A stretch of 64,000 nt of DNA, from assembly GCA_041653615.1 (NCBI GenBank), contig JBAZEZ010000003.1, positions 1,213 through 65,212 of the forward strand. The letters are read 5' to 3'. The DNA comes from Candidatus Ratteibacteria bacterium (GTDB taxonomy: Bacteria > Ratteibacteria > UBA8468 > MWAK01). The notes beneath the pieces are model-generated. The model ran no database searches. It saw nothing but the letters and a program-made list of their open reading frames with translations, and was not told the DNA's origin. The position numbers and the translations under genes were made by a program. Position 1 is the first letter of the stretch; every line of letters starts with the position of its first letter. This document shows, piece after piece, positions 17,700 through 61,824 of the stretch.

Positions 17700-17710
17700 G
17701 AAAGTTTATT

Positions 17711-17974
17711 TGGACGTAGATTTACGCAGATAATCGCAGATACAGATTAAAGATTACTTTAATGTGGATATTTTCACGATATCACCAAGAAATAATTAGG
17801 AAGATAAAAGGCACGATACAGGCAAGGGCAATAAAGGTAAAACACGTCACACATAATTTTGAACCCCTACCATCCCAAAAGATATAATTTTTCATAATAG
17901 AATTACTTAAAAAAATACTCTTAAAAAATTATAGTTTAAGCTTTATCCCGTTGTTTCTGCGTACATCTGCGTCC
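17711..17974. mobile_element. MITE-like element bounded by inverted repeats GGACGTAGAT / ATCTGCGTCC (copy 1 of 3)
   Basis: AT-rich 264-bp segment between convergent gene ends; TIR and internal block GATAATCGCAGATACAGATTAAA shared with copy 3 at 30779-30894. Confidence 0.6.
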
Positions 17975-17984
17975 CAATAGTAAT

Positions 17985-19130: not shown

Positions 19131-20585
19131 ATGGCGGAAAAAGAACTGCTTCAAGAGCGGGAACGAAAACTGGGCGCGATTATTCAGCGCGGTACCTATC
19201 CTTACGGCGGTCGTTTTGTCCGAAGCGTCCCGGCTCGGGAAGTAACGGATGGTTCAGGCGATGTCCGGCTCGCCGGTAGAATTGTTACCATGCGTAATCA
19301 CGGAAAGGCCGCTTTCGCGGACTTGGAGGACCTTTCCGGTCGTATTCAGGTCTATTTTCAGCAAGATATTCTCGGTGTTGCTTTTGACCTCTATCAGTTA
19401 TTGGATATCGGAGATATCGTCGGTGTGTCCGGAGAGCCTTTTCGCACTAGAACCGGCCAATTAACCGTTAAGGCTAAGGAGTTAACGCTTCTTTCCAAAT
19501 CAAACCGGCCCCTTCCGGAAAAATGGCATGGGCTGAAGGATGTCGAAACCAGATTTCGTCAACGATATCTTGATTTGATTGCCAACCCGGAAGTGCGGGA
19601 AGTTTTTATCGCCCGCAGTCTTATCGTCAGTCGCATACGGCAACGCCTGAATGAGAGATGTTTTTTGGAGGTGGAAACGCCGATGATGCATCCGATCGCG
19701 GGTGGAGCAGAGGCCCGACCATTTGTCACCCATCATAACACTTTGGGTACGGATCTTTATTTGCGCATCGCTCCGGAATTATACCTGAAGCGGCTTTTGG
19801 TCGGCGGTCTGGAAAAAGTTTACGAAATAAACCGCTCTTTTCGTAACGAAGGAATTTCACCGCTCCATAATCCTGAGTTTACGATGCTGGAACTTTACGC
19901 GGCCTATACTGATTACAAAGGGATGGCCGAAATTGCCGAAGGGCTGATTTTGTCTTTACTGGAGGCCAATATTCCGGGTGTGAACGGTTCCGGAAATAAG
20001 TTAAATTATCAGGGGGTGGAAATTGACCTGTCTCCTCCCTGGTGTCAGGCGACTTTATTCGATTTGATGAGAGAGCATGCCGGTATCAACGATTTGCGTA
20101 ACCGGGGAGAATTGCTTGCCTGCCTTCAGAAAGAGAGGACCCCGCTCACCGGAACCGAAACAGCCTTTGACCTATTGGACACTCTTTTTAAAATAAGGGT
20201 TCAGCCGAAATTGGTATCGCCAGTTTTCGTGATGGATTACCCCCGGGAGATTTCACCTTTGGCCAAGAGTAAACCGGGGGAGGCGGAGACGGTTGAACGA
20301 TTCGAACTTTTTATCGCTGGGATGGAGGTTGGTAATGCCTACTCGGAATTGAACGATCCGGAAGAGCAGCGCCGTCGTTTTTTGGAAGAGGTTAAGAATA
20401 ATCGTCCGGACCGGCCCAAGGTGGTGGATGAGGATTATATTCTCGCTCTATCCTACGGAATGCCGCCGGCCGGTGGTCTGGGCATAGGTATCGACCGTCT
20501 GGTGATGCTGTTGACGAACCAGCCTTCCATCCGCGAAGTAATCCTTTTCCCGCTTCTGCGTTCCCAGGCGGTAATTTCTAAGTGA
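19131..20585 (+). CDS. lysS: lysine--tRNA ligase (class II)
   Basis: 484 aa; OB anticodon-binding domain plus class II motifs (FRNEGIS..HNPEFTMLELY; GGLGIGIDRLVM). Confidence 0.93.
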   Translation: MAEKELLQERERKLGAIIQRGTYPYGGRFVRSVPAREVTDGSGDVRLAGRIVTMRNHGKAAFADLEDLSGRIQVYFQQDILGVAFDLYQLLDIGDIVGVSGEPFRTRTGQLTVKAKELTLLSKSNRPLPEKWHGLKDVETRFRQRYLDLIANPEVREVFIARSLIVSRIRQRLNERCFLEVETPMMHPIAGGAEARPFVTHHNTLGTDLYLRIAPELYLKRLLVGGLEKVYEINRSFRNEGISPLHNPEFTMLELYAAYTDYKGMAEIAEGLILSLLEANIPGVNGSGNKLNYQGVEIDLSPPWCQATLFDLMREHAGINDLRNRGELLACLQKERTPLTGTETAFDLLDTLFKIRVQPKLVSPVFVMDYPREISPLAKSKPGEAETVERFELFIAGMEVGNAYSELNDPEEQRRRFLEEVKNNRPDRPKVVDEDYILALSYGMPPAGGLGIGIDRLVMLLTNQPSIREVILFPLLRSQAVISK

Positions 20586-20815
20586 TGGAAAAAAAACGAA
20601 GGGTACTTTGGCTGGAAAACGCTCTGATTATTATGGCGATTGCCGCTTTGTGGCCGGGTATTTTGCATTGGCCCGACCGGATAACCAGGCCGTTTCTTTA
20701 CCTGGCGTTGGTTACGATGGTGGTGATTGCCCGACGCCGGTGGCGTCGGCTGATGAACCTGAAAACGGCCGAAAGAGACGAAGTTAGGCACAAAGGCACA
20801 AAGGTAGAAAGTTGA
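20582..20815 (+). CDS. small two-TM membrane protein, hypothetical
   Basis: 77 aa; overlaps lysS stop (translational coupling); hydrophobic helices. Confidence 0.4.
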   Translation: MMEKKRRVLWLENALIIMAIAALWPGILHWPDRITRPFLYLALVTMVVIARRRWRRLMNLKTAERDEVRHKGTKVES

Positions 20816-21361
20816 ATGAGGCGGAAGATTGGTTCTTGGGCGAGAATCGTTTTTGTCTGCGGTTTTTTGATTTGGGTTGGTCTTTTTACCAATTTAATTC
20901 TTCGGCCGGGCGAGAATCGTCAGGCCAAAGAACAGGAAAAAAAAGGAGACGTTTTTTTCAATAACGGCAAACCAGAAACAGCTCTTGTTTATTGGCGCCG
21001 CGCCATAGCGTTGGCTCCAAAACAGCGGTCTCCTTACGAAAAGATTTCGGCTTATTATCTGTTGCAAGGTCAATGGTTAGAGGCGAGAAAAATTTTGGAA
21101 AGTGGTTTGACACAATTGCCTTCGTGTGCTAATCTTTACTTTAATTTAGGTTTGAGTTATTATTTTAGCGAAGATTATATTCGCGCAAGGGATAATTTTG
21201 GGCGCGTGACACAGCTTGATTTTTATTATCCCGACGCCCATTATTTTTTAGGGTTAATCTACCAAAAGGAAGGCAAGCCGGTAGAAGCGAATAAAGAATT
21301 TGTTCGAGAAGTGAACTTGGATCCGACCAGTCGTCGAGCTTGGAGTGAAATCCGAAAATAA
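20816..21361 (+). CDS. membrane-anchored TPR-repeat protein
   Basis: 181 aa; N-terminal TM then TPR-like helices (ALVYWRRAIALAP..., YFNLGLSYY, YFLGLIYQKEGK). Confidence 0.55.
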   Translation: MRRKIGSWARIVFVCGFLIWVGLFTNLILRPGENRQAKEQEKKGDVFFNNGKPETALVYWRRAIALAPKQRSPYEKISAYYLLQGQWLEARKILESGLTQLPSCANLYFNLGLSYYFSEDYIRARDNFGRVTQLDFYYPDAHYFLGLIYQKEGKPVEANKEFVREVNLDPTSRRAWSEIRK

Positions 21362-21374
21362 AATAAATTTAATC

Positions 21375-21485
21375 GGACGCAGATAAATACAGAAACTATC
21401 TGATAATACTTATAAAATAATCTTTAAAGTATTTGTAATTTTCTAAAAATTAATCTTTTAATCTATATCCGCGGTAATCTGCGTC
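21375..21485. mobile_element. MITE-like element with GGACGCAGAT / ATCTGCGTCC inverted termini (copy 2)
   Basis: 111-bp AT-rich unit immediately upstream of the 21500 CDS; same TIRs as 17711 and 30779. Confidence 0.55.
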
Positions 21486-21499
21486 CGTAATAATCTTTT

Positions 21500-24400
21500 A
21501 TGAATATTTTCAAAAAAGTCCGAACCATTTTTATTCTTTTCAGTTTTCTGTTTTTTTTCTCGGTTACCGCGCAATCCACGGTTACGGAAGACGTCGCCTA
21601 TTTTTCTTCCCTGACGTCCCGGGTGCCCGGTTATCCGGGCAATAAAGCGGCGGCCGATTATATTTCGGCTCGGTTCCGGTCGCTTGGTCTTCAGGAAATA
21701 AAAAGGGAGGCCTATTCCGTAACTGTTCCGGTGGAAGAGTTTTCCACCCTGGAGTATCAGGGGAGGAAGATAAAAATTTCGGCTCTCTGGCCTAATCATG
21801 TGCGTACTTCCACTCTGCCGCCGGATGGAATTACCGGAAACCTGGTTTACGGCGGGGATGGTTCCCTGGTCAATTATTCGGGGAATGATCTGAAAGGCGC
21901 GGTTGTCCTGTTGGATTTTAACTGTGGATTTCGTTGGATGGACGCCGGTTTGCTGGGTGCCCAGGCGGTTATTTTTATTGCGCCGGAGGACACGACTTTT
22001 TTTGAAGCCCGTCGGAAATTTTTGAGTATACCGTTGGATTTACCCCGCTTTTATGTTACGCGCGAAGATGCGGATTTTTTGCTTTCCAAATTGAGGCGGG
22101 CTCAAAATACCAAGGCCGTTAACTCAGTACCGGTGAAACTTTCATGCCGGCAGAGCTGGCAGAAGGCGCCGACGGAAAATATTCTGGGTTATATAACCGG
22201 CACCGACCCTAAATTACGAAATGATATTATCTGCCTTTCAGCCTATTACGATTCGAATTCAGTAGTTCCTTCCCTGGCGCCCGGTGCGGATCAGGCCAGC
22301 AGCATCGCCGGACTACTTGATCTTGCCGCTTACTTCAGCCAGAATCCTCCCCGGCGGACCATTCTTTTTCTGGCTAACGGCAGTCATTTTCAGACCCTGC
22401 GGGGTATGGGTGATTTTGTTAAGCGGCACTACCGCAAAGAAAAAACTTTTTTAACCAAAGAGATGGAACCGATTAATCTGAAGCTATTAATCGGGCTTGA
22501 ACTTTCCAGTCATTCCGACCTTTTGGCGACCTACCATAACAGCAGTGAATTATATGCCCAGCGATATTTTGCTCCGTTCGCCAAAAAATTCCTGGAATAT
22601 GTCCCGGCTGCTTTTTCGGGCAAACTGCTTAACGGCGTCAGTCCGGAAAGAGGAGTGGCTTTTTCCGCTTTTCTTCCGGAAGGTATTAGCACCGACGGTT
22701 CCCTTTCTATCCGTTTCGGGTTGCCTTCCCTTTCTTTTGTAACCGTTTATGACAACCGGCGATATTTTGACACTCCGGTGGATATTGCTGCCCGCGTTGA
22801 CATCGGAAAATTAACAACCCAGGTTGAACTATTGCGCCAGATGCTGTACCGGGCATTTAATGATTCGGAATTTTTTCCGGAGGCGGAGCTTGCGTTCAAT
22901 GATTCCGTGCGCACCTTAAGGGGCCGCATCGTTTCTTTTGACCCGAAGACCAGTTTTGTTCCCAATCAGCCGGTGGCGAACGCGATTGTTTGCCCCAGAT
23001 ATCTTTATGTTTCTTATCAAAACCGTAAGAGTGCCTACGGAGTCCGGGGTGAATATTTGGAGTTGACTGATGCAAAGGGACGTTTTACCATTAACCAGAT
23101 TTTTGCCAATTGGGGTATTCTTGAGGCTTTTTATCTAGACCCGGAAAACGGTCGGATTACGATGGCTCCGGACCGGGGCGTTAACGGCGCGGAAAATTAT
23201 CCGATGAATTTTACTTTTGACGCGCCGGTCAAGGACTGGTCGATTGTCCTTTTTAACTGCGTCAGTACCAATCTCTACGATTTTATCGACCCCAGATATT
23301 TAATCGGATTGGATAAGATGGATGTTTTTAATTCCGCCAATTCTATTCCGTCCGCTTACGGTTTTTCATATCTGGAACTCCGTTCTTGGGAGTGGTCTTC
23401 CGAGGTGGAGCCGGCGGCGGTTATTTATTCCGAGCCGGGCATGGAGATTAAAGTTGCCGGAGAAACCGGTCCCCTGGGGAAAAGGATACTGCTCTTGAAT
23501 TCTCCCGACAGCAAGACCAAGGCTGATTCGGAAGGCTTGGGTTATCCGTTGACTGACGATTCGTCTCTGCTTACGCTTACTCCCTACCGGGCCTGCCGGG
23601 ATATGATTAACCTCAACGATTACCGGATCAATAATTTCAAGCAGTTCGGTATTTCCAACGAAAGGCTGCTCACCCTTCACGAAGAGGCAAAAAAATGGTT
23701 TTCCGTCGCATCCGAAAACCTGGCTCAGTTTAACTGGTATTCTTTTTTGACCAACAGCCGGCGAGCGGTTGGTCTGGAATCACGGGCTTATCCGGACGTG
23801 CAGGCTACAACCAATGATGTAATTAAAGGTCTTATTTTCTATTTTATTATTCTCCTGCCCTTCGCTTTTTTCAGCGAGAGGCTCTTTTTTGGTTTTACCG
23901 ATATCCGGAAACAAATTGCCGGAATTTTTACCATATTTTTAGCCGTTTATTTAGCTTTGCGCTTTGTTCACCCCGGTTTTCGTTTGAGCAACAGTCCGGA
24001 GGTTATTTTACTGGCTTTTATCATTCTCGTTCTTTCCGTTTTGGTCATTTTTTTAATTGCCGGTAAGTTTGAAGAACAGATGCAGCGTCTGAAACGAGAG
24101 CGGGCCAAGGTTTACGAAACCGACGTGGGACGCATTGCCGCCACCGGAGTTGCTTTTAACCTTGGAATTGCCAATATGAAACGGCGGAAACTCCGTACCA
24201 CGCTTACGGCGATTACCCTGATACTGTTAACTTTTACGGTCATCTCTTTTACTTCCATCAAGAGTTACCTTAGTTTTAATCAGGTGGCCAGAGGGTATTC
24301 GCCCGCCTATGAAGGGTTGATGATCCGGGACCGTGCTTGGTCTCCTTTGGAAGAACTCGGCTATGAGTATGTCAAAAATGAGTTTTCCGAAAAGGCGGTT

Positions 24401-25891
24401 GTGGCTTCCCGTTCCTGGTTGTTGAATCCGACTATTGAAGATAAGACTTTTACTCGCGTGGCCTACGGAAAACAGGAGACTTTTGTTTCAGGGTTGTTGG
24501 GTTTGACAGTCCAGGAACCGTTGGTTACCGGTTTCGACCGGTTACTAGTGGCCGGAAAATGGTTTGGAACTGATACGGAAAAATCGGTTATTATTTCGGA
24601 AAATATGGCCAAGAACCTTAACTTCCCTGTTTCGGAACTTGGTCAAGGCCAGGTAAATATTTTCGGAGAGGACCTGAAGGTCGTGGGGATTGTTTCGGAT
24701 GCGAAACTTAACGATTACAGTGATTTGGACGGTGAGCGGTTGACGCCGGTTGATTTTGCGATGATGCCTAGCCAGGAGATGAGCAAATTCAAGATGGAAC
24801 ACGCCGCCAACGTGATGTCCGGAGGCGGAAACACCAAAACCTTTACTCATCAGGAAGCGGCCAACGTGGTCATCGTGCCGTTCCAGTTCCTGCGCCAGCG
24901 CGGAGGTACCGTCCAGTCAATGGCGGTTAAATTCAATCCCGGTTATGAAACTCGGAAAGAGATTGAGGATTTCGTTTCCCGGCTGGCAGTGACGATTTTT
25001 GCCGGGATTAACGGTAAGACTTCGGTTTATTCGTCTCTTGGATTAACTTCTTTTTCCGGAATAGGGAATCTCTTTATTCCCATCCTGATTGCCAGCTTGA
25101 TTGTTCTCAATACCATGATGGGCGCGGTTTATGAACGTATCCGGGAAATCGGTATTTACAGCAGTGTCGGTTTGGCGCCCAGTCACATCGCCGCTCTTTT
25201 CTTCGCGGAAGCCTGCGTCTATTCGGTTCTGGGCGCGGTGGCCGGTTACCTGTTAGGCCAGGTGGTTTCCAAGGCCCTCCTGACGGCTGGTCTGCTGAAA
25301 GGTCTGACGCTGAACTATTCCTCTCTTTCCGCGGTTAGTTCTACCATCATTGTTATGGCCGTGGTTTTTATTTCCACTATTTTCCCGGCCCGTAAGGCTT
25401 CGCAGATGTCTGTTCCGGATGTTACGCGGCGGTGGGTTTTGCCTAAGCCGGACGGAGACGCCTGGGTTTTTGGTTTTCCATTTACGGTCGGAGAAGGCGA
25501 AGTCCTGGGTTTAATGACTTTTTTGCGTGATTATTTTTCTTCCTATTCGATTGAGGCGGTTGGTTATTTTTATACCGCTGATAACAAATTATTTGAAGAG
25601 ACCGGTCCAAAGGGTAAGTCCTATGTGACTTCTTGCCGGGTGTATTTGGCGCCGTTCGATTTGGGCGTGAGCCAGCAGTTTAAACTTTCCGCGTTTCCGG
25701 CCGGGGAGTTTGGATTTTACGGAATAGAAGTCCGAATGGAACGGGAAAGCGGGGAGGGAAGTGACTGGCAACGGTTGAATCGGAGATTCCTCGACAGCAT
25801 CAGGAAGCAATTTTTAGTCTGGCGGACGATAAGTAAGGAGATTAAAGAAGATTACCGGCAAGAAGGTGAAAAGGAATTGAAGAATGGATAA
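21500..25891 (+). CDS. large fusion protein: secreted M28-peptidase-like/PA domain (catalytic residues apparently substituted), then a MacB/FtsX-type permease module and a C-terminal cytoplasmic domain
   Basis: 1463 aa; signal/TM; M28-like block with GADQASS in place of GADDNASG and YYDS in place of AHLDS; FtsX signature (MKRRKLRTTLTAITLILL plus three C-terminal TM helices IYSSVGLAPSHIAALFFAEA...). Confidence 0.65.
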   Translation: MNIFKKVRTIFILFSFLFFFSVTAQSTVTEDVAYFSSLTSRVPGYPGNKAAADYISARFRSLGLQEIKREAYSVTVPVEEFSTLEYQGRKIKISALWPNHVRTSTLPPDGITGNLVYGGDGSLVNYSGNDLKGAVVLLDFNCGFRWMDAGLLGAQAVIFIAPEDTTFFEARRKFLSIPLDLPRFYVTREDADFLLSKLRRAQNTKAVNSVPVKLSCRQSWQKAPTENILGYITGTDPKLRNDIICLSAYYDSNSVVPSLAPGADQASSIAGLLDLAAYFSQNPPRRTILFLANGSHFQTLRGMGDFVKRHYRKEKTFLTKEMEPINLKLLIGLELSSHSDLLATYHNSSELYAQRYFAPFAKKFLEYVPAAFSGKLLNGVSPERGVAFSAFLPEGISTDGSLSIRFGLPSLSFVTVYDNRRYFDTPVDIAARVDIGKLTTQVELLRQMLYRAFNDSEFFPEAELAFNDSVRTLRGRIVSFDPKTSFVPNQPVANAIVCPRYLYVSYQNRKSAYGVRGEYLELTDAKGRFTINQIFANWGILEAFYLDPENGRITMAPDRGVNGAENYPMNFTFDAPVKDWSIVLFNCVSTNLYDFIDPRYLIGLDKMDVFNSANSIPSAYGFSYLELRSWEWSSEVEPAAVIYSEPGMEIKVAGETGPLGKRILLLNSPDSKTKADSEGLGYPLTDDSSLLTLTPYRACRDMINLNDYRINNFKQFGISNERLLTLHEEAKKWFSVASENLAQFNWYSFLTNSRRAVGLESRAYPDVQATTNDVIKGLIFYFIILLPFAFFSERLFFGFTDIRKQIAGIFTIFLAVYLALRFVHPGFRLSNSPEVILLAFIILVLSVLVIFLIAGKFEEQMQRLKRERAKVYETDVGRIAATGVAFNLGIANMKRRKLRTTLTAITLILLTFTVISFTSIKSYLSFNQVARGYSPAYEGLMIRDRAWSPLEELGYEYVKNEFSEKAVVASRSWLLNPTIEDKTFTRVAYGKQETFVSGLLGLTVQEPLVTGFDRLLVAGKWFGTDTEKSVIISENMAKNLNFPVSELGQGQVNIFGEDLKVVGIVSDAKLNDYSDLDGERLTPVDFAMMPSQEMSKFKMEHAANVMSGGGNTKTFTHQEAANVVIVPFQFLRQRGGTVQSMAVKFNPGYETRKEIEDFVSRLAVTIFAGINGKTSVYSSLGLTSFSGIGNLFIPILIASLIVLNTMMGAVYERIREIGIYSSVGLAPSHIAALFFAEACVYSVLGAVAGYLLGQVVSKALLTAGLLKGLTLNYSSLSAVSSTIIVMAVVFISTIFPARKASQMSVPDVTRRWVLPKPDGDAWVFGFPFTVGEGEVLGLMTFLRDYFSSYSIEAVGYFYTADNKLFEETGPKGKSYVTSCRVYLAPFDLGVSQQFKLSAFPAGEFGFYGIEVRMERESGEGSDWQRLNRRFLDSIRKQFLVWRTISKEIKEDYRQEGEKELKNG

Positions 25892-27842
25892 AAAAGAAAA
25901 CATATTCCCGCAGCCGGATGGTTTCGAAAGCGGTTTTAATATCAAAACTTTGTTCGCGGCTCTTTTTGTCGGTTTTATTATGCTGCCGGCCGGTATTTAT
26001 ATGGGTTTGATTGCCGGAACCAGCTTGGGTGCCGCCGCCCAGTGGGTAACGCTCATCCTTTTTGTCGAAATAGCCAAAAGGTCTTTTGTTCAGTTGCGGC
26101 GTCAGGAGATTTACCTCATTTTTATCGTGGCAAATTCCCTGATGATGGTGGGCGCGGCCGGTATTACGAACGGCGGCGCGTTCAGTTCGTTAATCTGGGA
26201 ACAGTATTTTGTTCAGTCGCCTTACGCTAAAGCTTTCGGACTTTCCAGTCAGATTCCGCTCTGGGCTGTTCCGCCGGCCGGCAGCGCCGCGCTCATCCAG
26301 CGCACCTTTTTGAGTAAAGTCTGGCTTGTTCCGATACTCATCCTTTTAGCAACCCAGATATTGAGCCGGGTCAATGCTTTTACGCTCGGATATTATTTTT
26401 TCCGGGTTACCAGTGATTTTGAGCGGCTGGAATTTCCGATGGCTCCGGTGGCGGCGGAAGGGGTTTGGGCGCTGACCGATCTTTCCGCTAAAAAAGATAC
26501 CAATCGCTGGCGCACCTTTGTTACCGGAGGCATGATCGGCATTATTTACGGTGTTTTTTATGTTTTCATTCCCACTTTTACCGGGTTGGTAATGGCTAAG
26601 CCGTTTACGCTTATCCCGATTCCTTTTGTCGATTTCACCAGCCAGGTAAGCTCCATTTTTCCGGCTTCGGTTCTGGGTTTTATGACCGACCTGGGCAACG
26701 TTTTTGCCGGTTTTGTCCTGCCTTTCTGGGTAGTGCTGGGTACCTTTGTCGGTTCCGTCGGGGCGCAGACTATTGCCAACCCGATTTTGTACAAGCATAC
26801 GGATTTTTTGAAAACCTGGCAGCCGGGAATGGGCGCTATCCCGGCCTATACGTCCACTACGATTGATTTTTGGATAAGCGTCGGAATCGGTCTGGGTATT
26901 ACGGTTTTAATTTTGAGTATCATCTCGGTTATTTCCAAAATTAGACAGAGAGAAAAGAAAACTCAAGCCGCAACTAAAATACCGGCGAACCGGGGTGATT
27001 CTCCCCTGGTGGTTATGCTGGGAATTTGGGCTCTTTCCACCCTCGTCTACGTGGTTCTTTGCCACGTGCTGGTACCTAAGTTTCCGTTACCTTTGATATT
27101 GTTTTTCGGTTTTATCCTAACCCCGGTGCTCACGTATATTTCCGCCCGGATGTTCGGCATAACCGGGGTTGCCAGCGGAATTTCTTTCCCCTACCTGACG
27201 GAAGGAACCTATATCCTTTCCGGCTACAAAGGCGCGGATATCTGGTATATGCCCTTGCCTTATTTCAATCACGGAGGAATGGCTCAAGGTTTCAAGCAGA
27301 TGGAGTTGCTTAAGGTGCGTTTTACGGATTGGTATAAGACCGAATTTATGGCTTTAGGGATAATGCTTTTTTGTAGTTTTCTTTTCTGGTCGGTCATCTG
27401 GAAGATGGGGCCGATTCCTTCGTCAACCTATCCTTTCGTTCAGCGGATGTGGCCGATGATGGCTATTCCGCGGGCGCTCTGGGTTTCCTCTACCGTTCAT
27501 GGGGGCGCCACCTGGCTGCTGGATTCGATTAAGGGTTCAATAATCGGCTGGAGCGCGGTCGGAGGTTTGGCTACGGCGGGAATCTTAGCCCTCTGTAAAG
27601 TACCAATTTCATTTTTTTACGGGATAGTAGGCGGAATTCCAATGTTACCGCATTACACTATTCCGATGTTTTTCGGAGCTCTATTAGGCAAATTTTTCTT
27701 TGCCCGGCGCATCGGTGTTAAAGAATGGCAGAAGATGACGCCGCTGCTTCTGGCCGGTTACGGTTGCGGTATGGGATTGGCCGGGGCGGCTTCAGTTGCC
27801 GTTGCCCTGATCGCCAAAACGGTGTTTCAATTGGTTTATTAA
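25884..27842 (+). CDS. polytopic integral membrane protein (about 14-16 TM), hypothetical; translationally coupled to the upstream fusion protein
   Basis: 652 aa, overlaps upstream stop by 8 nt; Gly/Trp/Pro-rich TM helices; family not recognised. Confidence 0.55.
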   Translation: MDKKENIFPQPDGFESGFNIKTLFAALFVGFIMLPAGIYMGLIAGTSLGAAAQWVTLILFVEIAKRSFVQLRRQEIYLIFIVANSLMMVGAAGITNGGAFSSLIWEQYFVQSPYAKAFGLSSQIPLWAVPPAGSAALIQRTFLSKVWLVPILILLATQILSRVNAFTLGYYFFRVTSDFERLEFPMAPVAAEGVWALTDLSAKKDTNRWRTFVTGGMIGIIYGVFYVFIPTFTGLVMAKPFTLIPIPFVDFTSQVSSIFPASVLGFMTDLGNVFAGFVLPFWVVLGTFVGSVGAQTIANPILYKHTDFLKTWQPGMGAIPAYTSTTIDFWISVGIGLGITVLILSIISVISKIRQREKKTQAATKIPANRGDSPLVVMLGIWALSTLVYVVLCHVLVPKFPLPLILFFGFILTPVLTYISARMFGITGVASGISFPYLTEGTYILSGYKGADIWYMPLPYFNHGGMAQGFKQMELLKVRFTDWYKTEFMALGIMLFCSFLFWSVIWKMGPIPSSTYPFVQRMWPMMAIPRALWVSSTVHGGATWLLDSIKGSIIGWSAVGGLATAGILALCKVPISFFYGIVGGIPMLPHYTIPMFFGALLGKFFFARRIGVKEWQKMTPLLLAGYGCGMGLAGAASVAVALIAKTVFQLVY

Positions 27843-28573: not shown

Positions 28574-29176
28574 ATGAGAAAAAATGGATTTACCCCGTTT
28601 AGAGGTTTATCGCTAATGGGGTTTACGCTGATTGAACTTTTAGTTGTTATTGCCATCATTGCCATTTTGGCGGCTATGATTTTACCGGCGCTCTCGCGAA
28701 CGCGGGAAAGCGCCCGGCGCACCACCTGTCTCAATAATTTAAAACAGTTAGGATTGGCTGTAAATATGTATATTCAGGACAACAGCGAATGTTTACCGGG
28801 TATGCAAGAATGGGTTACTACGCTTGGCTCTTATGTTTCGGATAATGACCAGGTTTTTTCTTGCCCCAGCGATCCGGATAAAACCAGTTCCACCTCTTAC
28901 GCCATAAACAGTTATGCGTCCGGTGAGAAGATTTCCGCGATTAGCCATTCCTCAACTTTTCCGGTCTTTTTTGACCGCAACACAACCGGCGCAAGTTCAT
29001 CCTATTTTACCGGATGTCCGCCAACCGCGCCGAGTGGCCCCAGCGATCCATTTTATTATGTTTTTTGTTCCAACCGGCATACCAATGGCGCGAATTTTTT
29101 GTTTCTGGACAGTCACGCAACCTGGCTTTCGAATCCGGAAAGCGTAAGTTCCGATATTCTAAAGTTTGAGCCTTAA
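28574..29176 (+). CDS. prepilin-type N-terminal cleavage/methylation domain protein of the DUF1559 (H-X9-DG-like) family
   Basis: 200 aa; [25 protein letters not shown] leader; C-terminal [13 protein letters not shown]; family abundant in Planctomycetota, Verrucomicrobiota, Lentisphaerota and Omnitrophota. Confidence 0.8.
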
Positions 29177-30761: not shown

Positions 30762-30778
30762 AGAGAAGCAAATTAATT

Positions 30779-30894
30779 GGACGCAGATTACCGCTGATAA
30801 TCGCAGATACAGATTAAACATTGCTCGAAAAGTACCTTAAAATTATCTTTCATCCTTGATCTTTATCCGGCTGTTTCCGCGTATATCTGCGTCC
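30779..30894. mobile_element. MITE-like element with GGACGCAGAT / ATCTGCGTCC inverted termini (copy 3)
   Basis: 116 bp between nadB and trpE; internal GATAATCGCAGATACAGATTAAA shared with copy 1. Confidence 0.6.
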
Positions 30895-30904
30895 TATTTG
30901 TTTT

Positions 30905-41130: not shown

Positions 41131-41217
41131 GGAGAGGTGCCTGAGTGGTTGAAGGGGCACGATTGGAAATCGTGTAGCCTGCAAGGGCTCGTGGGTTCGA
41201 ATCCCACCCTCTCCGCC
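41131..41217 (+). tRNA. tRNA-Ser (anticodon GGA), type II with long variable arm
   Basis: GGAGAGG acceptor 5' arm pairing with CCTCTCC; D-arm TGCCTGAGTGGTTGAAGGGGCA; anticodon loop TTGGAAA; long extra arm; GTGGGTTCGAATCCCAC T-arm; discriminator G plus encoded CC. Confidence 0.85.
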
Positions 41218-41254
41218 TTCGTCCGCTGAAGCGGACTTCGGCGGACGCAGTCCG
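41199..41254. repeat. direct repeat copy A (tRNA-Ser 3' half plus 39 nt downstream)
   Basis: 56-bp string GAATCCCACCCTCTCCGCCTTCGTCCGCTGAAGCGGACTTCGGCGGACGCAGTCCG, repeated at 41417. Confidence 0.8.
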
Positions 41255-41416
41255 CCAAGAGGTTTAGAAGCTGTTTTTGCGAAGGTGAGTAAGCTTTCTT
41301 GAAGGTGAGATTCGAGGGGAGCGAAGTCAGGCGACGCGACAAGAAGGAGCGTTGCCAGCGGGTGGCCTAGTCGAGACGTAGTGAAGTCGAGACAGCCGAA
41401 TCCCACCCTCTCCGCC

Positions 41417-41472
41417 TTCGTCCGCTGAAGCAGACTTCGGCGGACGCAGTCCGATCAGAAATTTGCGAAATC
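41417..41472. repeat. direct repeat copy B of the tRNA-Ser 3' end (att-like remnant), 1 mismatch
   Basis: 55 of 56 identical to 41199-41254, 218 bp downstream. Confidence 0.8.
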
Positions 41473-43451: not shown

Positions 43452-46400
43452 ATGGTTACCCAAAAAAGAATAATGTCGGCATTAGCGGCACTTATGCTTA
43501 TTTTTGGCATAGGCGCATCTATCTATGCGCAAGGAAACAAGTGGGAGAATCTTAACGACCAGGTTATGTCATTGTACAGTCAAGGTCAATACGAGCGTGC
43601 TGTAGTGGTTGCAAAAGAGGCGTTGCAGGTTTCCGAACAATCTTTTGGACCTAACCACTCTTCTACGGCTACAAGCCGGAACATCCTTGCGTTGTTGTAT
43701 AAAACCCAGGGCCAGTACGGACAGGCCGAGCCGCTTTACAGGCGTTCGCTGGCGATTGACGAAAAAGCTTTCGGTCCGGACCATCTTAATGTGGCCACAG
43801 ACTTGGATAACATCGCGGGGTTGTGTTATGCTCAGAAGCAGTATGCTCAAGCAGAGCCGTTCTACAAACGTTCGTTGGCAATCAGGGAGAAATCTTTCGG
43901 TTTGGATAATCTTGGAGTGATTTCAAGCCTGAACAATCTCGCGGGGTTGTACTATACCCAAGGTCGTTACGCTCAGGCCGAACCGCTTTTCAAACGTTCT
44001 TTGGCAATCCGGGAAAAAGTTCTCGGTCCGAATAACCTTGAGGTGGCAGCGAGTTTGAATAACCTCGCGGAAATGTATTATGCCCAGGGCCGTTACGTGC
44101 AGGCCGAACCGCTTTACAGGCGCTCGCTGGCGATACGGGAAAAAGCTCTTGGTCCGGATTATCCGGATGTGGCGACAGACCTGAATAATCTTGCGGGACT
44201 GTACTATGCCCAAGGACGTTACGCTCAGGCTGAGCCGCTCCTCAGACGTTCGCTGGCAATCCGGGAGAGGACTTTGGGCAAGAATCATCCTGATGTGGCC
44301 GCGAATTTGAACAACCTCGCTGAAGTGTATGATGCCCAGGGACAGCATGACCAGGCCGAACCGCTTTACGAGCGTTCGCTGGTAATCCGGGAGAAGGTTT
44401 TTGGCAAGAATAATCTTGATGTAGCCGTAAGCCTGAACAACCTTGCGGGGTTGTATTCTGCCCAAGGCAAATATGCCCAAGCCGAGCCGTTCTATAAGCG
44501 CGCTCTGGCAATTAGGGAAAAAGCGCTTGGTCCAAACAACCTTATGGTGGCCGCGAGTCTGAATAACCTCGCGGACCTATACTATGTTCATGGCCAATAT
44601 GCTCAGGCCGAGCCGCTTTACAAACGTTCGCTGGCGATCCGGGAAAAGGCTCTTGGTAAGAACCACCCTGATGTTGCCTCCAATTTGAGCAACCTCGCGG
44701 GTTTGTATTATGCCCAGGGCCAGTACGTAAAGGCTGAACCTCTTTACAAGCGCTCTTTGGCAATCAGGGAGAAAGCTTTCGGTTCTGATAACTTTGCTGT
44801 AGCCGTGAGCCTGAACGACCTCGCAGGTTTGTATTATGCCCAAGGTCAATATACGCAGGCCGAACCGCTCTATGCGCGCTCGTTGGCGATCCGGGAAAAA
44901 GCTTTCGGCTCGGATAATCTGGCGGTGGACACAGACCTGAATAACCTCGCAGAATTGTATTATGCCCAGGGCCAATACACTAAGGCCGAACCGCTCTACA
45001 AACGCTCGTTGGCAATTAGGGAAAAAGCTTTTAGTCCGGATAGCCTTGAGGTAGCTGCGGGTTTGAATAATCTTGCGGACCTGTATTATGCTCAGGTCCG
45101 GTACGCTCAGGCTGAGTCGTTGTACAAGCGGGCATTAGCGATCGACGAGAAAGCTTTCGGTCCAGATAACCTTGCGGTAGATACAGACCTGAATAATCTT
45201 GCGGAACTGTTTTATGCCCAAGGCCAGTATGTTCAAGCCGAGCCGTTTTTCAAGCACTCTTTGGCGATACGAGAGAAAGCTCTCGGTCCAGAAAATCTTT
45301 TAGTAGCCGCGAGCCTGAACAGTATAGCAGACCTGTATTATGCCCAGGGCAAGTACGCGCAATCTGAGCCGTTCTATACGCGTTCTTTGACAATCAGGGA
45401 GAAAGTTTTCGGCTTGGACAATCTAGCGTTGGATACAGATCTTACCAATCTCGCGAATCTATATTATACCCAAAGTCATTATGCCCAGGCCGAGCCGCTC
45501 CTCAGGCGTTCGCTGGCAATAAGAGAGAAGGCTTTTGGTCCGGATAACCTTGCGGTAGCAACCAGCCTGAACAGCATAGCAGACCTGTATTATGCCCAGG
45601 GTCAGTATGCTCAATCTGAGCCATTCTATAATCGCTCGCTGGCAATCAGGGAGAAATTTTTCGGCGCCGATGACCTTGCGATGGACACAAACTTAAATAG
45701 TCTTGCGAACATGTATTATGCTCAAGGGCAATATGGCCAGGCCGAACCGCTTTACAAACGCTCGCTGGCGATACGGGAGAAAGCTCTCGGTCCGGATTAT
45801 CCCGACGAAGCCACAGATTTGAGCAACCTCGCGGGTTTGTATTATGCCCAGGGCCAGTACGTAAAGGCTGAACCGTTCTATACGCGCTCGCTGGCGATTA
45901 GGGAGAAAGCTTTCGGATCTGATAATCTTACGGTGGATACGGATTTGAATAACCTCGCGGAGCTTTATTATGTTCAGGGCCAGTACGCTAAGGCTGAACC
46001 TCTTTACAAGCGCTCTTTGGCAATCAGGGAGAAAGCTTTCGGTTCTGATAACTTTGCTGTAGCCGTGAGCCTGAACGACCTCGCAGGTTTGTATTATGCC
46101 CAAGGTCAATATACGCAGGCCGAACCGCTCTATGCGCGCTCGTTGGCGATCCGGGAAAAAGCTTTCGGCTCGGATAATCTGGCGGTGGACACAGACCTGA
46201 ATAACCTCGCAGAATTGTATTATGCCCAGGGCCAATACACTAAGGCCGAACCGCTCTACAAACGCTCGTTGGCAATTAGGGAAAAAGCTTTTAGTCCGGA
46301 TAGCCTTGAGGTAGCTGCGGGTTTGAATAATCTTGCGGACCTGTATTATGCTCAGGTCCGGTACGCTCAGGCTGAGTCGTTGTACAAGCGGGCATTAGCG

Positions 46401-46925
46401 ATCGACGAGAAAGCTTTCGGTCCAGATAACCTTGCGGTAGATACAGACCTGAATAATCTTGCGGAAATTTATTATATTCAGGATCATTACGCTCAGGCCG
46501 AGCCGCTCCTCAGGCGTTCGCTGGCAATAAGAGAAAAGACTTTTGGCCCCAACCACCCTGGTGTGTCCACAAGTCTGAACAACCTTGCGGATTTGTACTA
46601 TTCCCAAGGCAATTATGGCCAAGCCGAACCGCTTTACAAACGTTCGCTGGCAATTGACGAAAAAACTCTCGGTTCGGATCATCCCGAAGTGGCAATAGAT
46701 TTGAACAATCTCGCGGGTTTGTATTATGCCCAAGGCCATTACGCTCAGGCCGAGCCGCTTTACAAGCGTTCTTTGGCAATTTGGGAAAAAGCTCTCGGTC
46801 CAAATCACCCCAATGTGGCTACGAGCCTTGATAATATGGCGGTGCTCTGTCGAAAAAGCGGTAGAGAAAAAGAAGCAAAGGCGCTGGAGACGCGAGCTGC
46901 AGCCATCAGGGCAATTAAGCGTTAA
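43452..46925 (+). CDS. secreted or lipid-anchored protein built from about 26 tandem 42-aa TPR units (kinesin-light-chain-like)
   Basis: 1157 aa; signal peptide; unit consensus [42 protein letters not shown] repeated throughout. Confidence 0.8.
   Translation: [1157 protein letters not shown]
44728..45206. repeat. 479-bp perfect internal direct repeat, copy 1, within the TPR gene
   Basis: identical to 45988-46466 (offset 1260 bp = 10 TPR units). Confidence 0.85.
45988..46466. repeat. 479-bp perfect internal direct repeat, copy 2
   Basis: identical to 44728-45206. Confidence 0.85.
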
Positions 46926-52861: not shown

Positions 52862-52995
52862 GGTCCCGTAATTGTTGTGTAGTTGCCGAGCTTGCTCGGC
52901 GCAGTTAATGTAGGGGCGCGATTCATCGCGCCCGTGGGTCGGATGAATCCGACCCCTACGTTTAAAGAGCCAACCAAGGTTGGCCCCTACAATTT
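52862..52995. repeat. multi-hairpin intergenic repeat, copy A (GTTGCCGAGCTTGCTCGGCGC module plus GTAGGGG...CCCCTAC nested palindromes)
   Basis: shares a 23-bp module with 55633-55655 and the TGTAGGGG/CCCCTACA architecture with 55668-55725 and 60198-60290. Confidence 0.7.
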
Positions 52996-54183: not shown

Positions 54184-55632
54184 TTGAAAGTTTACGCGCT
54201 GAGCCTGGGATGCCCGAAGAATCTGGTTGACACGGAAAGGTTTCTGGCCGACCTGGTCGGTAAAAGATGGGAAGTGGTCGCGGAGCCGGATGAAGCGGAC
54301 GTTCTTTTCCTGAATACCTGCGCGTTTCTCTCCGAGGCGGTAGTTGAGTCAAAGAAGTTTTTGCGGGATTTGATTTTCGTCAAGAAACGTTTTCCGGAAA
54401 AAAAGATTTATCTGGCCGGCTGTATGGTCAGTCGCATTGGCAAATCGCTGCTATCTGAATTTCCGGAAATTGACCGGTTGATTACCCCTCAGGAGATCGT
54501 TCTTCTTCCTAACCGCTTTCTCTGCACCCCAAGTCACTATGCCTACCTTAAGATTTCCGATGGCTGCGACAATCATTGCCGCTATTGCCTGATTCCCGGA
54601 TTGCGCGGCCCCTTGAAGAGTTACCCGATGGAGCGGTTGATTGCCGAAGCGCGCACGCTGATAGCCGGAGGCGTGCGGGAAATAAATATTTGCGCCCAGG
54701 ATACCACCAGCTATGGGATTGACCTTTACGGAAAACCGGTCTTGGATAAATTGCTGCGGGAAGTTTGCAAAATTGAGGATTTGCGCTGGGTTCGGCTTTT
54801 GTATACCTATCCTACCGGTTATAACGAAGAACTAATAGAAACGCTCGCGGAACTTGCTTCCCCCTCACCCCGCCCTCTCCCCCGTGGGGAGAGGGGGAAT
54901 TCCTCTTTATTATTTCCTCTCCCCGAAAGGAAGAAGATGAATTCTCTTTCGTCCTTTCCTCTCTCCCCGGAGGAGAGGGGGAATACCCTTTTATTATCTC
55001 CTCTCCCCACGGGGGAGAGGATGAAGGTGAGGGGGAGTTTGCCGGGAGGGGTGAGGGGGAAATTGTGTCCCTACCTTGACATCCCGTTGCAGCACGCTTC
55101 CGACCAAATACTTTCGGCGATGAATCGCCACGGCAGCCAAAAAGAATACCGTAAATTAATTGCCAAATTGCGCCGTGCCATTCCGGATTTGATCCTGCGC
55201 ACAACTTTTATGGTCGGCTATCCGGGTGAAACGGAAAATGATTTTCAAATACTGCTGGATTTTGTTGAGGAGATGGAGTTTGAAAAATTAGGTCTTTTTG
55301 CCTATTCGGCGGAAACCGGTACGCCGGCGGCTGATTTACCGCAGGTTCCCCAGCCGCTGAAGGAAGAACGACTGGAAAGGTTAGGAAAAGTCCAGGCGAA
55401 GATTTCGCGGCGTAAATTGAAGAATTTTATTGGATGCGAGGTTGAAGCGGTGGTTGAGGACGTTAATCCGGATGATAAGAAAAAATCAATCGGCCGGACC
55501 CAGTTTGACGCGCCGGAAGTGGACGGTTCAATTATTCTGGACCGCCTGTTCCCGGTCGGGACCTTTGTTCGGGTAAAGGTTATTGGTGTGGATTCGTATG
55601 ACTTGCACGGAGAGGTAATACAAGAATTGTAG
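54184..55632 (+). CDS. rimO: ribosomal protein S12 methylthiotransferase RimO (MiaB-family radical SAM plus TRAM), carrying an in-frame 67-aa insertion
   Basis: MTTase N-domain (SLGCPKN), CDNHCRYC radical-SAM cluster, YLDIPLQHAS, C-terminal TRAM; probable TTG start at 54184 (the track ORF begins at 54118 and overlaps the upstream gene). Confidence 0.85.
   Translation: MKVYALSLGCPKNLVDTERFLADLVGKRWEVVAEPDEADVLFLNTCAFLSEAVVESKKFLRDLIFVKKRFPEKKIYLAGCMVSRIGKSLLSEFPEIDRLITPQEIVLLPNRFLCTPSHYAYLKISDGCDNHCRYCLIPGLRGPLKSYPMERLIAEARTLIAGGVREINICAQDTTSYGIDLYGKPVLDKLLREVCKIEDLRWVRLLYTYPTGYNEELIETLAELASPSPRPLPRGERGNSSLLFPLPERKKMNSLSSFPLSPEERGNTLLLSPLPTGERMKVRGSLPGGVRGKLCPYLDIPLQHASDQILSAMNRHGSQKEYRKLIAKLRRAIPDLILRTTFMVGYPGETENDFQILLDFVEEMEFEKLGLFAYSAETGTPAADLPQVPQPLKEERLERLGKVQAKISRRKLKNFIGCEVEAVVEDVNPDDKKKSIGRTQFDAPEVDGSIILDRLFPVGTFVRVKVIGVDSYDLHGEVIQEL
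54860..55060. mobile_element. 201-bp palindromic MITE-like element (TIRs CCCCCTCACCCC / GGGGTGAGGGGG; three internal CTCTCCCC-N4-GGGGAGAG hairpins) inserted in frame within rimO
   Basis: TIRs at 54860-54872 and 55048-55060; length 201 = 3 x 67 keeps the frame; encoded peptide is low-complexity PLPRGERG...PLPTGER. Confidence 0.7.
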
Positions 55633-55735
55633 TTGCCGAGCTTGCTCGGCGCGGTTGTTTTGTTGTAGGGGAGGGGCTCTGTCCCCTCCCGTGGTGGGCG
55701 GGGATGTAACCCCGCCCCTACATTAACACTTTCCT
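55633..55735. repeat. multi-hairpin intergenic repeat, copy B
   Basis: GTTGCCGAGCTTGCTCGGCGC + TGTAGGGGAGGGGCTCTGTCCCCTCCCG + GGCGGGGATGTAACCCCGCCCCTACATTAA between convergent rimO and pilQ; likely also a bidirectional terminator. Confidence 0.7.
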
Positions 55736-60150: not shown

Positions 60151-60164
60151 AATTTCTTTTAATT

Positions 60165-60295
60165 GTAGTCGCCCGGCTTGCCGGGCTCCGTTTTTTTCTT
60201 GTAGGGGAGGGGCTTTGTCCCCTCCCGCAGTAGGACAGGCGTCCCGCCTGTCAAATCGCGGGCGGGGATGTAACCCCGCCCCTACATTAAAATTT
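60165..60295. repeat. multi-hairpin intergenic repeat, copy C, in the pilM-pilN spacer
   Basis: GCCCGGCTTGCCGGGC + TGTAGGGGAGGGGCTTTGTCCCCTCCCG + GGCGGGGATGTAACCCCGCCCCTACATTAA; about 90% identical to copy B over the latter modules. Confidence 0.7.
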
Positions 60296-61824
60296 TAAGA
60301 ATTTACACCGTTCCTCGGAGAAAGTCCGGCCAGAATGGCAAGGAAAGGAGCCAGGTTTTTTCCCCGTTCCGTTTGCAGTCCGTCGTCTTTTAAAACTGGA
60401 TATGGTTCCAGTTCCAGTAGTATTCTTTCGCCGATAAATTTCGGCAAGGAAGGAATCTGTCCGCCGCCGCCGGTTACCACCAATTTTTTAACCTTTATTT
60501 CCAAAACCTGCTGGCAATAGCTGATTGTTTTTTCCAATTCATCCAACAGGGTTTTTGTGGTTTTGTCAATGGCGTCCGGGAAGGCAATCAGGGAATGTTT
60601 TTTTTCTTCCAACATCTCCAGGACGGTTGGGGCGTCGAAGTTGTTGGCAGACACTATTTCCGCGATTATCCTTTCGTTGCCCCAGAGTATATCCCGGACA
60701 AAAAGAAGTTTGTTTTTTTCAACTACGGCCAGGTTGCTTCTCCGGTGTCCGATGTTAAGAAGCAGCGTTGCTTCGGAACCGTTTCCGGTGTTGGCCAGGT
60801 ATCCGTTTGCCAGCGCAATGCTGTCAATGGTTAATCCGGTCGGATTGAGCCCTGTTGATTTAAGTAAAGAAATTCTTTCGTCGCTTAAAATTTGCGGGGC
60901 GGCGACAAAAAGAATTCCCCTCTTTTCATTTTTTTGGTCGATAAGAGAGAAATCGGAATCCATCAGGGAAAGGTCTTCTCCGAGAATCTGCGATGCTTCA
61001 ATCTTAATCGCCCCGGTCAATTCTTTGCCGGTCAGGGCAGGGAGGGAGAGGTATTGCACGTTTATTTCCGAGTTGGAAATAGAAGAGAAAACCGGTTTTC
61101 TCTCCAGGTGGTGCTTGGATACCCAACCGGAAAGCAGGGTGGCTGTTTCGTTGTTTTCAACCGGCCGCCGGGCAAATTCAATCGCTTTCAGTTTTCCATC
61201 GCCATTGATAACCGCGAGTTTTACGTATCGGCTGCCGATATCTACGGCTACCGTAGTCTGTCCGCCGAATTTTTTCTGGGACGGGGTGGTCATTTTCAAG
61301 GATTTATTTTGCTTTATCTCCTCTTTTTTTACTATTGCCTGCTGCCGCAGTTCTTCCCGTTCCCGAAGCAGGGTTTCTTTTTTAGCCAGGGCTGCCTGAC
61401 GCGCCGCCTCTTTCTGTTTTTGTAATTCTTCTTTTGTTTTGATTGCAGCTGCTTTGCGTTCTTCGGTTTCTTTTAACCTGCCCGCCGCAATTTCTTCCTT
61501 GTTCCGCCTTTCTTCGGTGGATTGTTTTTGCTTAAATTCCAGTTCCCGCTGTTTTGCCGCTTCTTTTTCCCGGAATTGCGCTTCGGTTTTTACTATTGCC
61601 TGCTGCCGCAGTTCTTCCCGTTCTCGAAGCAGGGTTTCTTTTTTAGCCAGGGCTGCCTGACGCGCCGCCTCTTTCTGTTTCCGCAGTTCTTCCTTTGCTC
61701 TAACTCTAACATCCATTGCTTCCGCCGCGGCTTTATTTTTTTTGAGCCGGAGTATCTCCAGAAATTTTATTTTGTTTTCTTTTTGGTCAGAGTTCATCAT
61801 CTTTTCCAGCTCGGTTTGGTCCAA
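60295..61824 (-). CDS. pilM: type IV pilus assembly ATPase-fold protein PilM with an about-200-aa Lys/Glu-rich coiled-coil N-terminal extension
   Basis: 509 aa; C-terminal actin/FtsA-like fold (VAVDIGSRYVKLAVI...); N-terminus contains two copies of KEELRKQKEAARQAALAKKETLLREREELRQQAIVK, encoded by an about-100-bp DNA tandem repeat at 61324-61425 and 61587-61688. Confidence 0.7.
   Translation of the reverse strand: MDQTELEKMMNSDQKENKIKFLEILRLKKNKAAAEAMDVRVRAKEELRKQKEAARQAALAKKETLLREREELRQQAIVKTEAQFREKEAAKQRELEFKQKQSTEERRNKEEIAAGRLKETEERKAAAIKTKEELQKQKEAARQAALAKKETLLREREELRQQAIVKKEEIKQNKSLKMTTPSQKKFGGQTTVAVDIGSRYVKLAVINGDGKLKAIEFARRPVENNETATLLSGWVSKHHLERKPVFSSISNSEINVQYLSLPALTGKELTGAIKIEASQILGEDLSLMDSDFSLIDQKNEKRGILFVAAPQILSDERISLLKSTGLNPTGLTIDSIALANGYLANTGNGSEATLLLNIGHRRSNLAVVEKNKLLFVRDILWGNERIIAEIVSANNFDAPTVLEMLEEKKHSLIAFPDAIDKTTKTLLDELEKTISYCQQVLEIKVKKLVVTGGGGQIPSLPKFIGERILLELEPYPVLKDDGLQTERGKNLAPFLAILAGLSPRNGVNS

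Follow-up and report, generated by a model that had tools for sequence, protein, structure and literature searches.

A 64-kb stretch of DNA from a Candidatus Ratteibacteria bacterium (contig JBAZEZ010000003.1), referred to below as the window, carries a four-gene locus centered on two membrane proteins. The first, M28-FtsX, joins an exported domain with the fold of M28 aminopeptidases to an FtsX-type permease, and the second is a polytopic protein related to oligopeptide transporters (OPT), designated the OPT-like protein. The conservation of this pair as a unit, the anatomy of M28-FtsX, and the presence of an ATPase gene in the same cluster of some relatives led us to propose, with about even chances of being right, that the products of the locus (20585-27842) form the envelope-facing core of a type VII (MacB/LolCDE/FtsEX-type) ATP-binding cassette (ABC) machine, which is encoded by several genes and powered in trans. 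The genes of the locus are, in order:

20585-20815, plus strand: small membrane protein of 76 amino acids (aa), first gene of the clade-specific operon (gene calls)
20816-21361, plus strand: membrane-anchored tetratricopeptide repeat (TPR) protein of 181 aa (Pfam TPR_2 and TPR_1)
21500-25891, plus strand: whole M28-FtsX gene, 1463 aa, 100% identical to P0001, which is annotated as 'FtsX-like permease family protein [Candidatus Ratteibacteria bacterium]'
25884-27842, plus strand: polytopic OPT-like partner of 652 aa, translationally coupled through an 8-nucleotide (nt) overlap

The ATG of the last open reading frame (ORF) is placed 8 nt before the end of the M28-FtsX ORF; both the overlap and the coordinates of the two ORFs were exactly as given in a first-pass annotation made from the sequence alone.

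A scan of one genome per GTDB species detected at least 591 relatives of M28-FtsX, mainly in Omnitrophota, Latescibacterota (often two copies per genome), Gemmatimonadota, and Armatimonadota. Exhaustive HMMER searching with aa 741-1463 retrieved 1290 cluster representatives at E ≤ 1e-30, in which the membrane-plus-C-terminal module is always C-terminal, in proteins of 595-3053 aa. The giant relatives P0098, P0380, P0365, and P0366 (2450-3050 aa) carry LysM or Big_5 Ig-like domains before the M28-like domain, additions that hint at cell-wall or surface binding. Gene neighborhoods were examined in a tblastn census of 84 loci, counts being made on the loci that extend over the relevant flank (75, 67, 63, or 69). 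The M28-FtsX gene is directly followed by an OPT-like gene in 53 of 75 loci and directly preceded by a gene for a DUF6785 protein in 32 of 67. Among the 63 loci with both flanks, the adjacent gene was OPT-like only in 20, DUF6785 only in 10, both in 22, and neither in 11, so that at least one partner was adjacent in 52/63. In the opposite direction, look-ups from three OPT-like homologs located on long contigs revealed an FtsX protein of 1420-1470 aa upstream in all three cases. Co-occurrence of the two genes across genomes, a check named beforehand, was therefore found as tight coupling, to which fusions involving DUF6785 (see below) also testify. The downstream adjacency and the reverse look-ups indicate that M28-FtsX and the OPT-like protein are a conserved unit.

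The 652-aa partner had been regarded in the first-pass annotation as an unclassified membrane protein. The copy encoded in the window had no Pfam match at E ≤ 1, and neither single-sequence nor profile searches detected a relative in the PDB. However, 20 of 35 aligned family members scanned individually matched PF03169 (OPT), with a best E of 3e-11, so that the protein no longer stands as unclassified. The partner has hundreds of close homologs, many with a precomputed PF03169 match, and relatives are listed at NCBI as 'peptide transporter' or 'OPT/YSL family transporter'. Since direct BLASTP comparison of the OPT-like protein with DUF6785 was only marginal (E 0.08), a profile-profile comparison was needed: hhalign, run between the OPT-like family and the DUF6785 proteins of related loci, gave 95% probability and E 3e-8 over 207 N-terminal columns. 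DUF6785 and DUF6784 are moreover fused at the C terminus of the large protein in P0046, P0051, and P0388 (~2120-2134 aa). Judged from the family matches to PF03169 and from the profile-profile alignment, the OPT-like protein is a probable remote branch of the OPT superfamily, and the two types of partner are probably distant homologs. Like members of the OPT family (PF03169, TC 2.A.67) and like DUF6785/DUF6784, the partner is polytopic and of ~650 aa; it differs from the OPT family in that it appears to form a separate branch tied to the FtsX protein, the copy in the window falling below Pfam detection. Membership of a known family such as OPT, occurring independently of the permease, had been named as an outcome that would speak against a dedicated pair. 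The partner does seem to be a remote OPT member, but in the cases checked it does not appear to occur apart from the FtsX protein.

Pfam analysis of the large protein identified Peptidase_M28 at aa 227-440 (32 bits, for a cut-off of 21.3), FtsX (PF02687) at aa 1192-1304 (53.6 bits), and MacB_PCD (PF12704) at aa 973-1095 with 25.3 bits, slightly below the cut-off of 27; many relatives have a precomputed PF12704 match. Sequence searches of the PDB matched the N-terminal half to M28 aminopeptidases, both plain and containing a protease-associated (PA) domain, and the C-terminal half to YtrF, MacB, LolC, and LolF. The fusion of a secreted PA/M28-like domain to an FtsX-type permease, which had been read from the sequence at first pass, is thus borne out. 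The following segments, all within the M28-FtsX gene, were delineated.

21518-21574, plus strand: signal peptide or membrane anchor, aa 7-25 (hydropathy)
21587-22879, plus strand: exported PA plus M28-fold domain, aa ~30-460, with a rewired metal site (Y249, D251, D264, S295, H296, E334, D424)
22880-23818, plus strand: beta-rich domains, aa ~471-665, and three-helix stalk, aa 694-776 (AlphaFold2 secondary structure, pLDDT mostly >85)
23819-24058, plus strand: three extra transmembrane (TM) helices, aa 774-853 (hydropathy, conservation)
24203-25387, plus strand: MacB/FtsX-type permease module, with TM1 at aa 902-920, a periplasmic domain at aa 921-1185, and TM2-TM4 at aa 1192-1294
25397-25888, plus strand: cytoplasmic C-terminal domain, aa 1300-1463 (~165 aa), with a helix-grip (SRPBCC/KA1-like) fold

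According to hydropathy, the ectodomain spans aa 26-773, a basic linker separates the extra TM helices from TM1 of the permease, and the extracytoplasmic loop between TM1 and TM2 comprises ~265 aa. The three long helices of the stalk run into the first extra TM helix, and the extra TM region contains ten invariant residues (F780, P787, E793, R794, L795, H824, P825, F827, P833, and F840). The coupling-helix motif ER..EIG of the permease is likewise conserved: none of E1212, R1213, I1217, G1224, L1225, and P1227 varies among 40 diverse members, some of which come from two-gene loci. Sixteen positions of the C-terminal domain are invariant in 40 sequences. A nucleotide-binding domain was considered for this C-terminal domain and was ruled out by its helix-grip fold, indicating that the large protein does not contain a hidden ATPase. 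The large periplasmic domain and the extra cytoplasmic C-terminal domain of the first-pass annotation correspond to the TM1-TM2 domain and to this ~165-aa tail, respectively.

The M28-like site was mapped by HMMER alignments to solved M28 enzymes and by an alignment of 114 family members. The positions are listed below in AAP numbering, followed by the residue found here and by the residues found in the family (n = 114).

H97: Y249 here; Y in 92, F in 12, H in 9
D99: D251 here; kept in the family
D117 (bridging): D264 here; E in 91, D in 15
E151 (general base): S295 here; A, G, or S in 109, Glu in 0
E152: H296 here; H in 112
D179: E334 here; D in 102, E in 10
H256: D424 here; D in 104, N in 7

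The M28 alpha/beta fold is present in the large protein, and the family consensus at these positions is Y-D-E-[A/G]-H-D-D, versus the canonical H-D-D-E-E-D-H. None of the 114 members has the canonical catalytic set. Instead of the five metal ligands His-Asp-Glu-Asp-His, the protein of the window has Y249, D264, H296, E334, and D424, and the glutamate that acts as general base is replaced by S295. The catalytic residues are therefore not intact, five of them (Y249, S295, H296, E334, and D424) departing from the canonical set in the alignment that had been named beforehand as the check to be made. The loss of the metal-binding residues had been anticipated from the motif GADQASS; the canonical set is indeed lost, but this motif retains the bridging aspartate, D264. 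Since the substituted positions are almost invariant, the site is best described, as far as the alignments can tell, as rewired rather than decayed. D/E264, H296, and D424 together provide one His and two carboxylates, a composition like that of the canonical Zn1 site. This pattern points to a ligand- or peptide-binding module, possibly with a single putative metal, rather than to a canonical aminopeptidase. Other M28-fold proteins are non-catalytic or bind a single metal, namely, transferrin receptor 1, GPAA1, nicalin, and the glutaminyl cyclases. The domain described here differs from these by a family-specific pattern of substitution (Y-D-E/D-x-H-D/E-D), by the absence of a detectable close sequence relationship, and by being bacterial and fused to an ABC permease.

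Scanning all frames of the window for Walker A and LSGGQ motifs did not reveal any frame that combines both, and when four ATPases of related clusters were compared with the window by tblastn, no match had an E below 0.03, in agreement with the first-pass statement that the window contains no ABC ATPase. Searches of the window by tblastn with the short FtsX, PqqD, and X340 proteins of four relatives (see below) did not detect any of these either. The genes around M28-FtsX in relatives were counted in the 69 loci with at least 6 kb of downstream sequence. They encode a Cys-containing protein of ~310-340 aa without Pfam matches (16 loci), a PqqD-like protein (19 loci), a minimal FtsX permease (8 loci), and an ABC ATPase (12 loci). 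The minimal FtsX permease (214-226 aa; PF02687 at 71-73 bits) has almost no periplasmic loop. Eight loci have the order M28-FtsX, OPT-like, [X340], PqqD, short FtsX, and ATPase, the ~310-340-aa protein being present in six of them. L013, L014, L042, and L046 are among these eight, their large protein being 48-53% identical to that of the window, and L013 also has a TPR gene upstream. Two shorter loci beyond the 69-locus count, L076 and L054, show the same gene order and have a TPR gene too. In L034, L035, L038, and L039, a lone ATPase gene lies directly upstream of the genes for DUF6785, M28-FtsX, and the OPT-like protein, with no other permease near.

The ATPases of these clusters gave their best scores with the models of LolD, YbbA, MacB, DarD, DevA, and FtsE. 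Proteins of this clade drive FtsX-type permeases. The cluster ATPase is 57-84% identical across phyla, whether it is encoded in cis or in a stand-alone context. The stand-alone module (X314, which is a Cys-rich protein of 314 aa; PqqD; short FtsX; and ATPase) was found in a Latescibacteria metagenome-assembled genome (L089, 5935-8797) and in two metagenome contigs (L087, 7605-10508; L088, 7651-10511). Its surroundings are conserved housekeeping genes: it overlaps a gene for a CDP-alcohol phosphatidyltransferase, and secA is close by. This observation indicates that the ATPase engine can be encoded apart from the permease. The first-pass annotation had emphasized a permease lacking its ATPase and had named, as evidence that would count against this idea, an ABC ATPase in the same operon in relatives. 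Such a gene, of the LolD/MacB/FtsE clade, is present in the same cluster in 12/69 loci, including those of TPR-bearing clade members whose large protein is 48-53% identical to that of the window; the idea of an ATPase-less permease is thus not supported. Because the ATPase is encoded in cis in some relatives and in a stand-alone module elsewhere, its absence from the window is more readily explained as a matter of gene order than as evidence of an ATPase-free permease, and the ATPase used in this genome is presumably encoded in trans.

In the machine that we propose, the ectodomain would carry a rewired co-catalytic zinc site in which one His and two or three carboxylates are left, a Tyr replaces the first His, and the catalytic Glu is absent. 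Mounted on its stalk and on the three extra TM helices, it would be joined to a four-TM MacB-type permease ending in the cytoplasmic helix-grip domain. Energy would be provided by the highly conserved LolD/MacB-type ATPase, in this genome from a gene outside the window, and the coupling helix, which is conserved, would relay ATP-driven movements to the periplasmic domain and the ectodomain (mechanotransmission). The large FtsX protein may be paired with the minimal FtsX, in the manner of LolC and LolE. The OPT-like protein or its DUF6785 paralogue would be a stoichiometric membrane partner and the likely transmembrane path for a peptide-like substrate. A peptide theme is pointed to by the M28 fold, OPT, the PqqD-like peptide chaperones, and, in a few members, LysM. 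The domain anatomy, the conservation across the family, the gene linkage, the fusions, and the in-cis ATPase of relatives are observations, whereas physical complex formation, use of a trans-encoded ATPase in this genome, a peptide substrate, and the direction of transport are inferred.

The features shared with type VII ABC systems (MacB, LolCDE, FtsEX, and YbbAP-TesA) are the four-TM FtsX unit, the probable periplasmic domain between TM1 and TM2, the ER..EIG coupling helix, and, in the operons of relatives, a gene for a LolD/MacB/FtsE-clade ATPase. As in LolC/LolE, the clusters of relatives include a second, different FtsX-type permease gene, and as in FtsEX-EnvC and YbbAP-TesA, the permease is associated with a periplasmic module that has a hydrolase fold. 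YbbAP-TesA is a type VII ABC transporter that works with a periplasmic hydrolase (PMC12646458), and FtsEX-EnvC uses a degenerate metallopeptidase as an adaptor (PMC7668044). In contrast to these systems, the hydrolase-like module is fused to the N terminus of the permease by way of three extra TM helices, TM4 is followed by a helix-grip domain of 165 aa, and a polytopic protein, either OPT-like or DUF6785, is an obligate neighbor that is in some cases fused. The second permease of the family is also almost devoid of a periplasmic domain, and the ATPase is accompanied by the PqqD-like and ~310-340-aa Cys-containing proteins and is usually non-adjacent. Neither a separate coiled-coil adaptor of the FtsEX-EnvC type, with its degenerate LytM domain, nor an amidase or hydrolase that it would control was found at the locus or among the conserved neighbors of relatives. 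The ADOP family (TIGR03434) resembles M28-FtsX in being an FtsX-type permease commonly found without an adjacent ATPase and gave a weak match in the FtsX domain. ADOP proteins are, however, duplicated permeases without an M28 ectodomain, and membership of that family was rejected (30 bits for a cut-off of 622).

Several observations weigh against a type VII machine powered in trans. Literature searches on M28-FtsX, DUF6785, or PqqD plus FtsX did not find any report, and databases name the family only generically. Assignment of the partner to OPT is remote, given that this copy lacks a Pfam match and PDB sequence relatives. The family of the module of short FtsX and ATPase is very large (the minimal FtsX has 6585 hits at E ≤ 1e-10), and the module may serve other partners. 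In addition, 57 of the 69 related loci, as well as the window, do not contain an ATPase gene within ~10 kb. Finally, the rewired positions are very strongly conserved (H296 in 112/114 and D424 in 104/114), which could mean a non-canonical catalytic site instead of a binding module. The lack of a nearby ATPase would be expected if, in the two-gene clade, M28-FtsX were an ATPase-independent receptor or scaffold, in which the pseudo-peptidase ectodomain senses or binds and the helix-grip domain relays the signal. The conserved extra cytoplasmic domain would be suitably placed for a partner to dock, and ADOP, found among the weak matches, provides a precedent for orphan FtsX proteins. This receptor nonetheless seems improbable to us, since the coupling-helix motif is invariant throughout the family. 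Relatives of the TPR-bearing clade (L013, L014, L042, L046, and L076; 48-53% identity) also have the ATPase in the operon, M28-FtsX is the only permease near the lone ATPase in four loci, and the ATPase module exists as a separate operon in other genomes. The general idea proposed at first pass, a mechanotransmission device in the style of MacB/FtsEX with a non-catalytic peptidase-like module, remains the best analogy; an ATPase-free receptor is unlikely. Somewhat less improbable, and still well short of being favored, is an active non-canonical metallo-exopeptidase. Its single-metal site (D/E264, H296, and D424) would trim peptides that the OPT-like protein imports for nutrition, the ABC part regulating or gating the process. 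OPT transporters (TC 2.A.67) import oligopeptides. The near invariance of the substituted positions, which extends to D/E264 (106/114), speaks for such an enzyme, and a peptide-scavenging lifestyle may be assumed for the carrier phyla, known mostly from metagenomes. On the other hand, the general base Glu151 has no replacement, the position being A, G, or S in 109/114 members, and Tyr or Phe takes the place of the Zn2 ligand His97 in 104/114.

A role in the control of cell-wall remodeling, as for FtsEX, would have the ectodomain bind stem peptides or regulate a hydrolase while the OPT-like protein recycles peptides. The peptidoglycan-binding LysM domain that precedes the M28-like domain in P0098 and P0380 is in keeping with this role, as is the use by FtsEX of the degenerate metallopeptidase EnvC as an adaptor (PMC7668044). 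LysM is nevertheless confined to few members, the clusters contain no conserved amidase or hydrolase gene, and the several paralogs per genome of Latescibacterota would be unusual for a division factor, so that we regard a cell-wall controller as slightly more doubtful than the ATPase-free receptor. Far less credible than either is a defence-related membrane effector of the PADLOC 'CARF_m8 / LolE_TM' group. The model PDLC01991 (CARF_m8--CARF_LolE_TM) does match aa 750-1448 with 216 bits (E 2e-64), but the match covers positions 50-686 of the 810 in the profile, and the C-terminal part of the model is missing here. The large protein does not contain a Rossmann-like CARF sensor domain, the neighbors in the window are the housekeeping genes lysS, birA, nadB, and trpE, and the family is chromosomal, syntenic, multi-copy, and found in ordinary contexts. 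Apart from this profile, PADLOC gave only generic ABC matches, and a review of CARF effectors offered nothing specific on it; the profile match was judged to reflect a shared membrane module, and assignment to a defence system was rejected.

The lysS, 76-aa, and TPR genes are tightly packed in the window: the start of the 76-aa gene overlaps the stop of lysS (TGATG), and its own stop abuts the ATG of the TPR gene. Weak homologs of the 76-aa protein are encoded directly upstream of the TPR gene in at least eight related loci, plus L090-L092. At least 16 loci have a gene for a TPR homolog directly before M28-FtsX, and the two genes overlap in L091 and L092; the order TPR then M28-FtsX is a feature of the Omnitrophota/Ratteibacteria-like clade. 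In the window, the two genes are separated by 138 nt (21362-21499), in which the following element is located.

21374-21487, unstranded: palindromic REP/MITE-like element with 11-nt terminal inverted repeats (CGGACGCAGAT)

The terminal inverted repeats of this element lie at 21374-21384 and 21477-21487, and its fold has a z-score of -3.95. The terminal repeat has five matches (≤1 mismatch) in the window versus one expected. Counting this one, the window contains at least three such palindromic elements of ~115 nt, with terminal inverted repeats of GGACGCAGAT, two others being at 17706-17975 and at ~30773-30895 (between nadB and trpE); an Rfam search with the intergenic element did not identify any family. 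The MITE-like element that had been noted ahead of the locus is thus supported by its termini, its fold, and its further copies. Since the TPR and M28-FtsX genes of relatives overlap or are separated by a short gap at this site, the element probably arrived by insertion between them and does not belong to the protein system.

Four other features of the window were recorded. A second family of GC-rich intergenic repeats (52878-52906, 55625-55732, and 60161-60296) adjoins minus-strand genes and contains the hairpin-forming segments GGGGAGGGGCTCTGTCCCCTCCC and GGGCGGGG...CCCCGCCC. The gene at 28574-29176 (plus strand) encodes a prepilin-type protein in which an N-terminal methylation motif, DUF1559, and a C-terminal H-X9-DG motif were recognized. 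Such proteins are typical of PVC-group bacteria, in keeping with the Ratteibacteria/Omnitrophota assignment. The 1157-aa ORF at 43452-46925 (plus strand) consists largely of ~25-26 tandem copies of a 126-nt (42-aa) unit with 60-100% identity, and its product is a long repeat protein. A tRNA gene (41131-41215; Rfam, 56 bits) has its 3′ end and downstream sequence duplicated (41198-41265 and 41397-41464, 199 nt apart, 91% identity), which could be the remnant of an integration site.

Type VII ABC systems (MacB, LolCDE, FtsEX, and YbbAP) each perform a distinct envelope job by mechanotransmission. We tentatively suggest that the family of M28-FtsX adds to these a so far unrecognized type of envelope machine, a hybrid ABC/OPT system in which a type VII mechanotransducer would be physically coupled, and sometimes fused, to an OPT-superfamily protein resembling a secondary transporter, and which would capture peptides or proteins and carry them through the inner membrane. 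The large FtsX with its rewired M28 receptor domain, the minimal FtsX, and the LolD-like ATPase would make up the mechanotransducer, and the cytoplasmic PqqD-like peptide chaperone would act in the same pathway. An equally tentative extension is that this machine is widespread in Omnitrophota, Ratteibacteria, Latescibacterota, Gemmatimonadota, Armatimonadota, and relatives. With 1290 cluster representatives and members in no fewer than 591 species genomes, the family is large; it also spans several poorly studied phyla and is often multi-copy. Three traits are unusual: the M28 site is rewired throughout the family, an OPT-like or DUF6785 partner is obligatory, and the engine is a split module that includes a PqqD-like protein. 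Capsulimonas corticalis (CCAX7_40080) is a cultured carrier, which makes the system testable. The linkage would give DUF6785 a first functional context, and, if the components form one complex, they would represent a new coupling of an ABC motor to a membrane protein resembling a secondary transporter.

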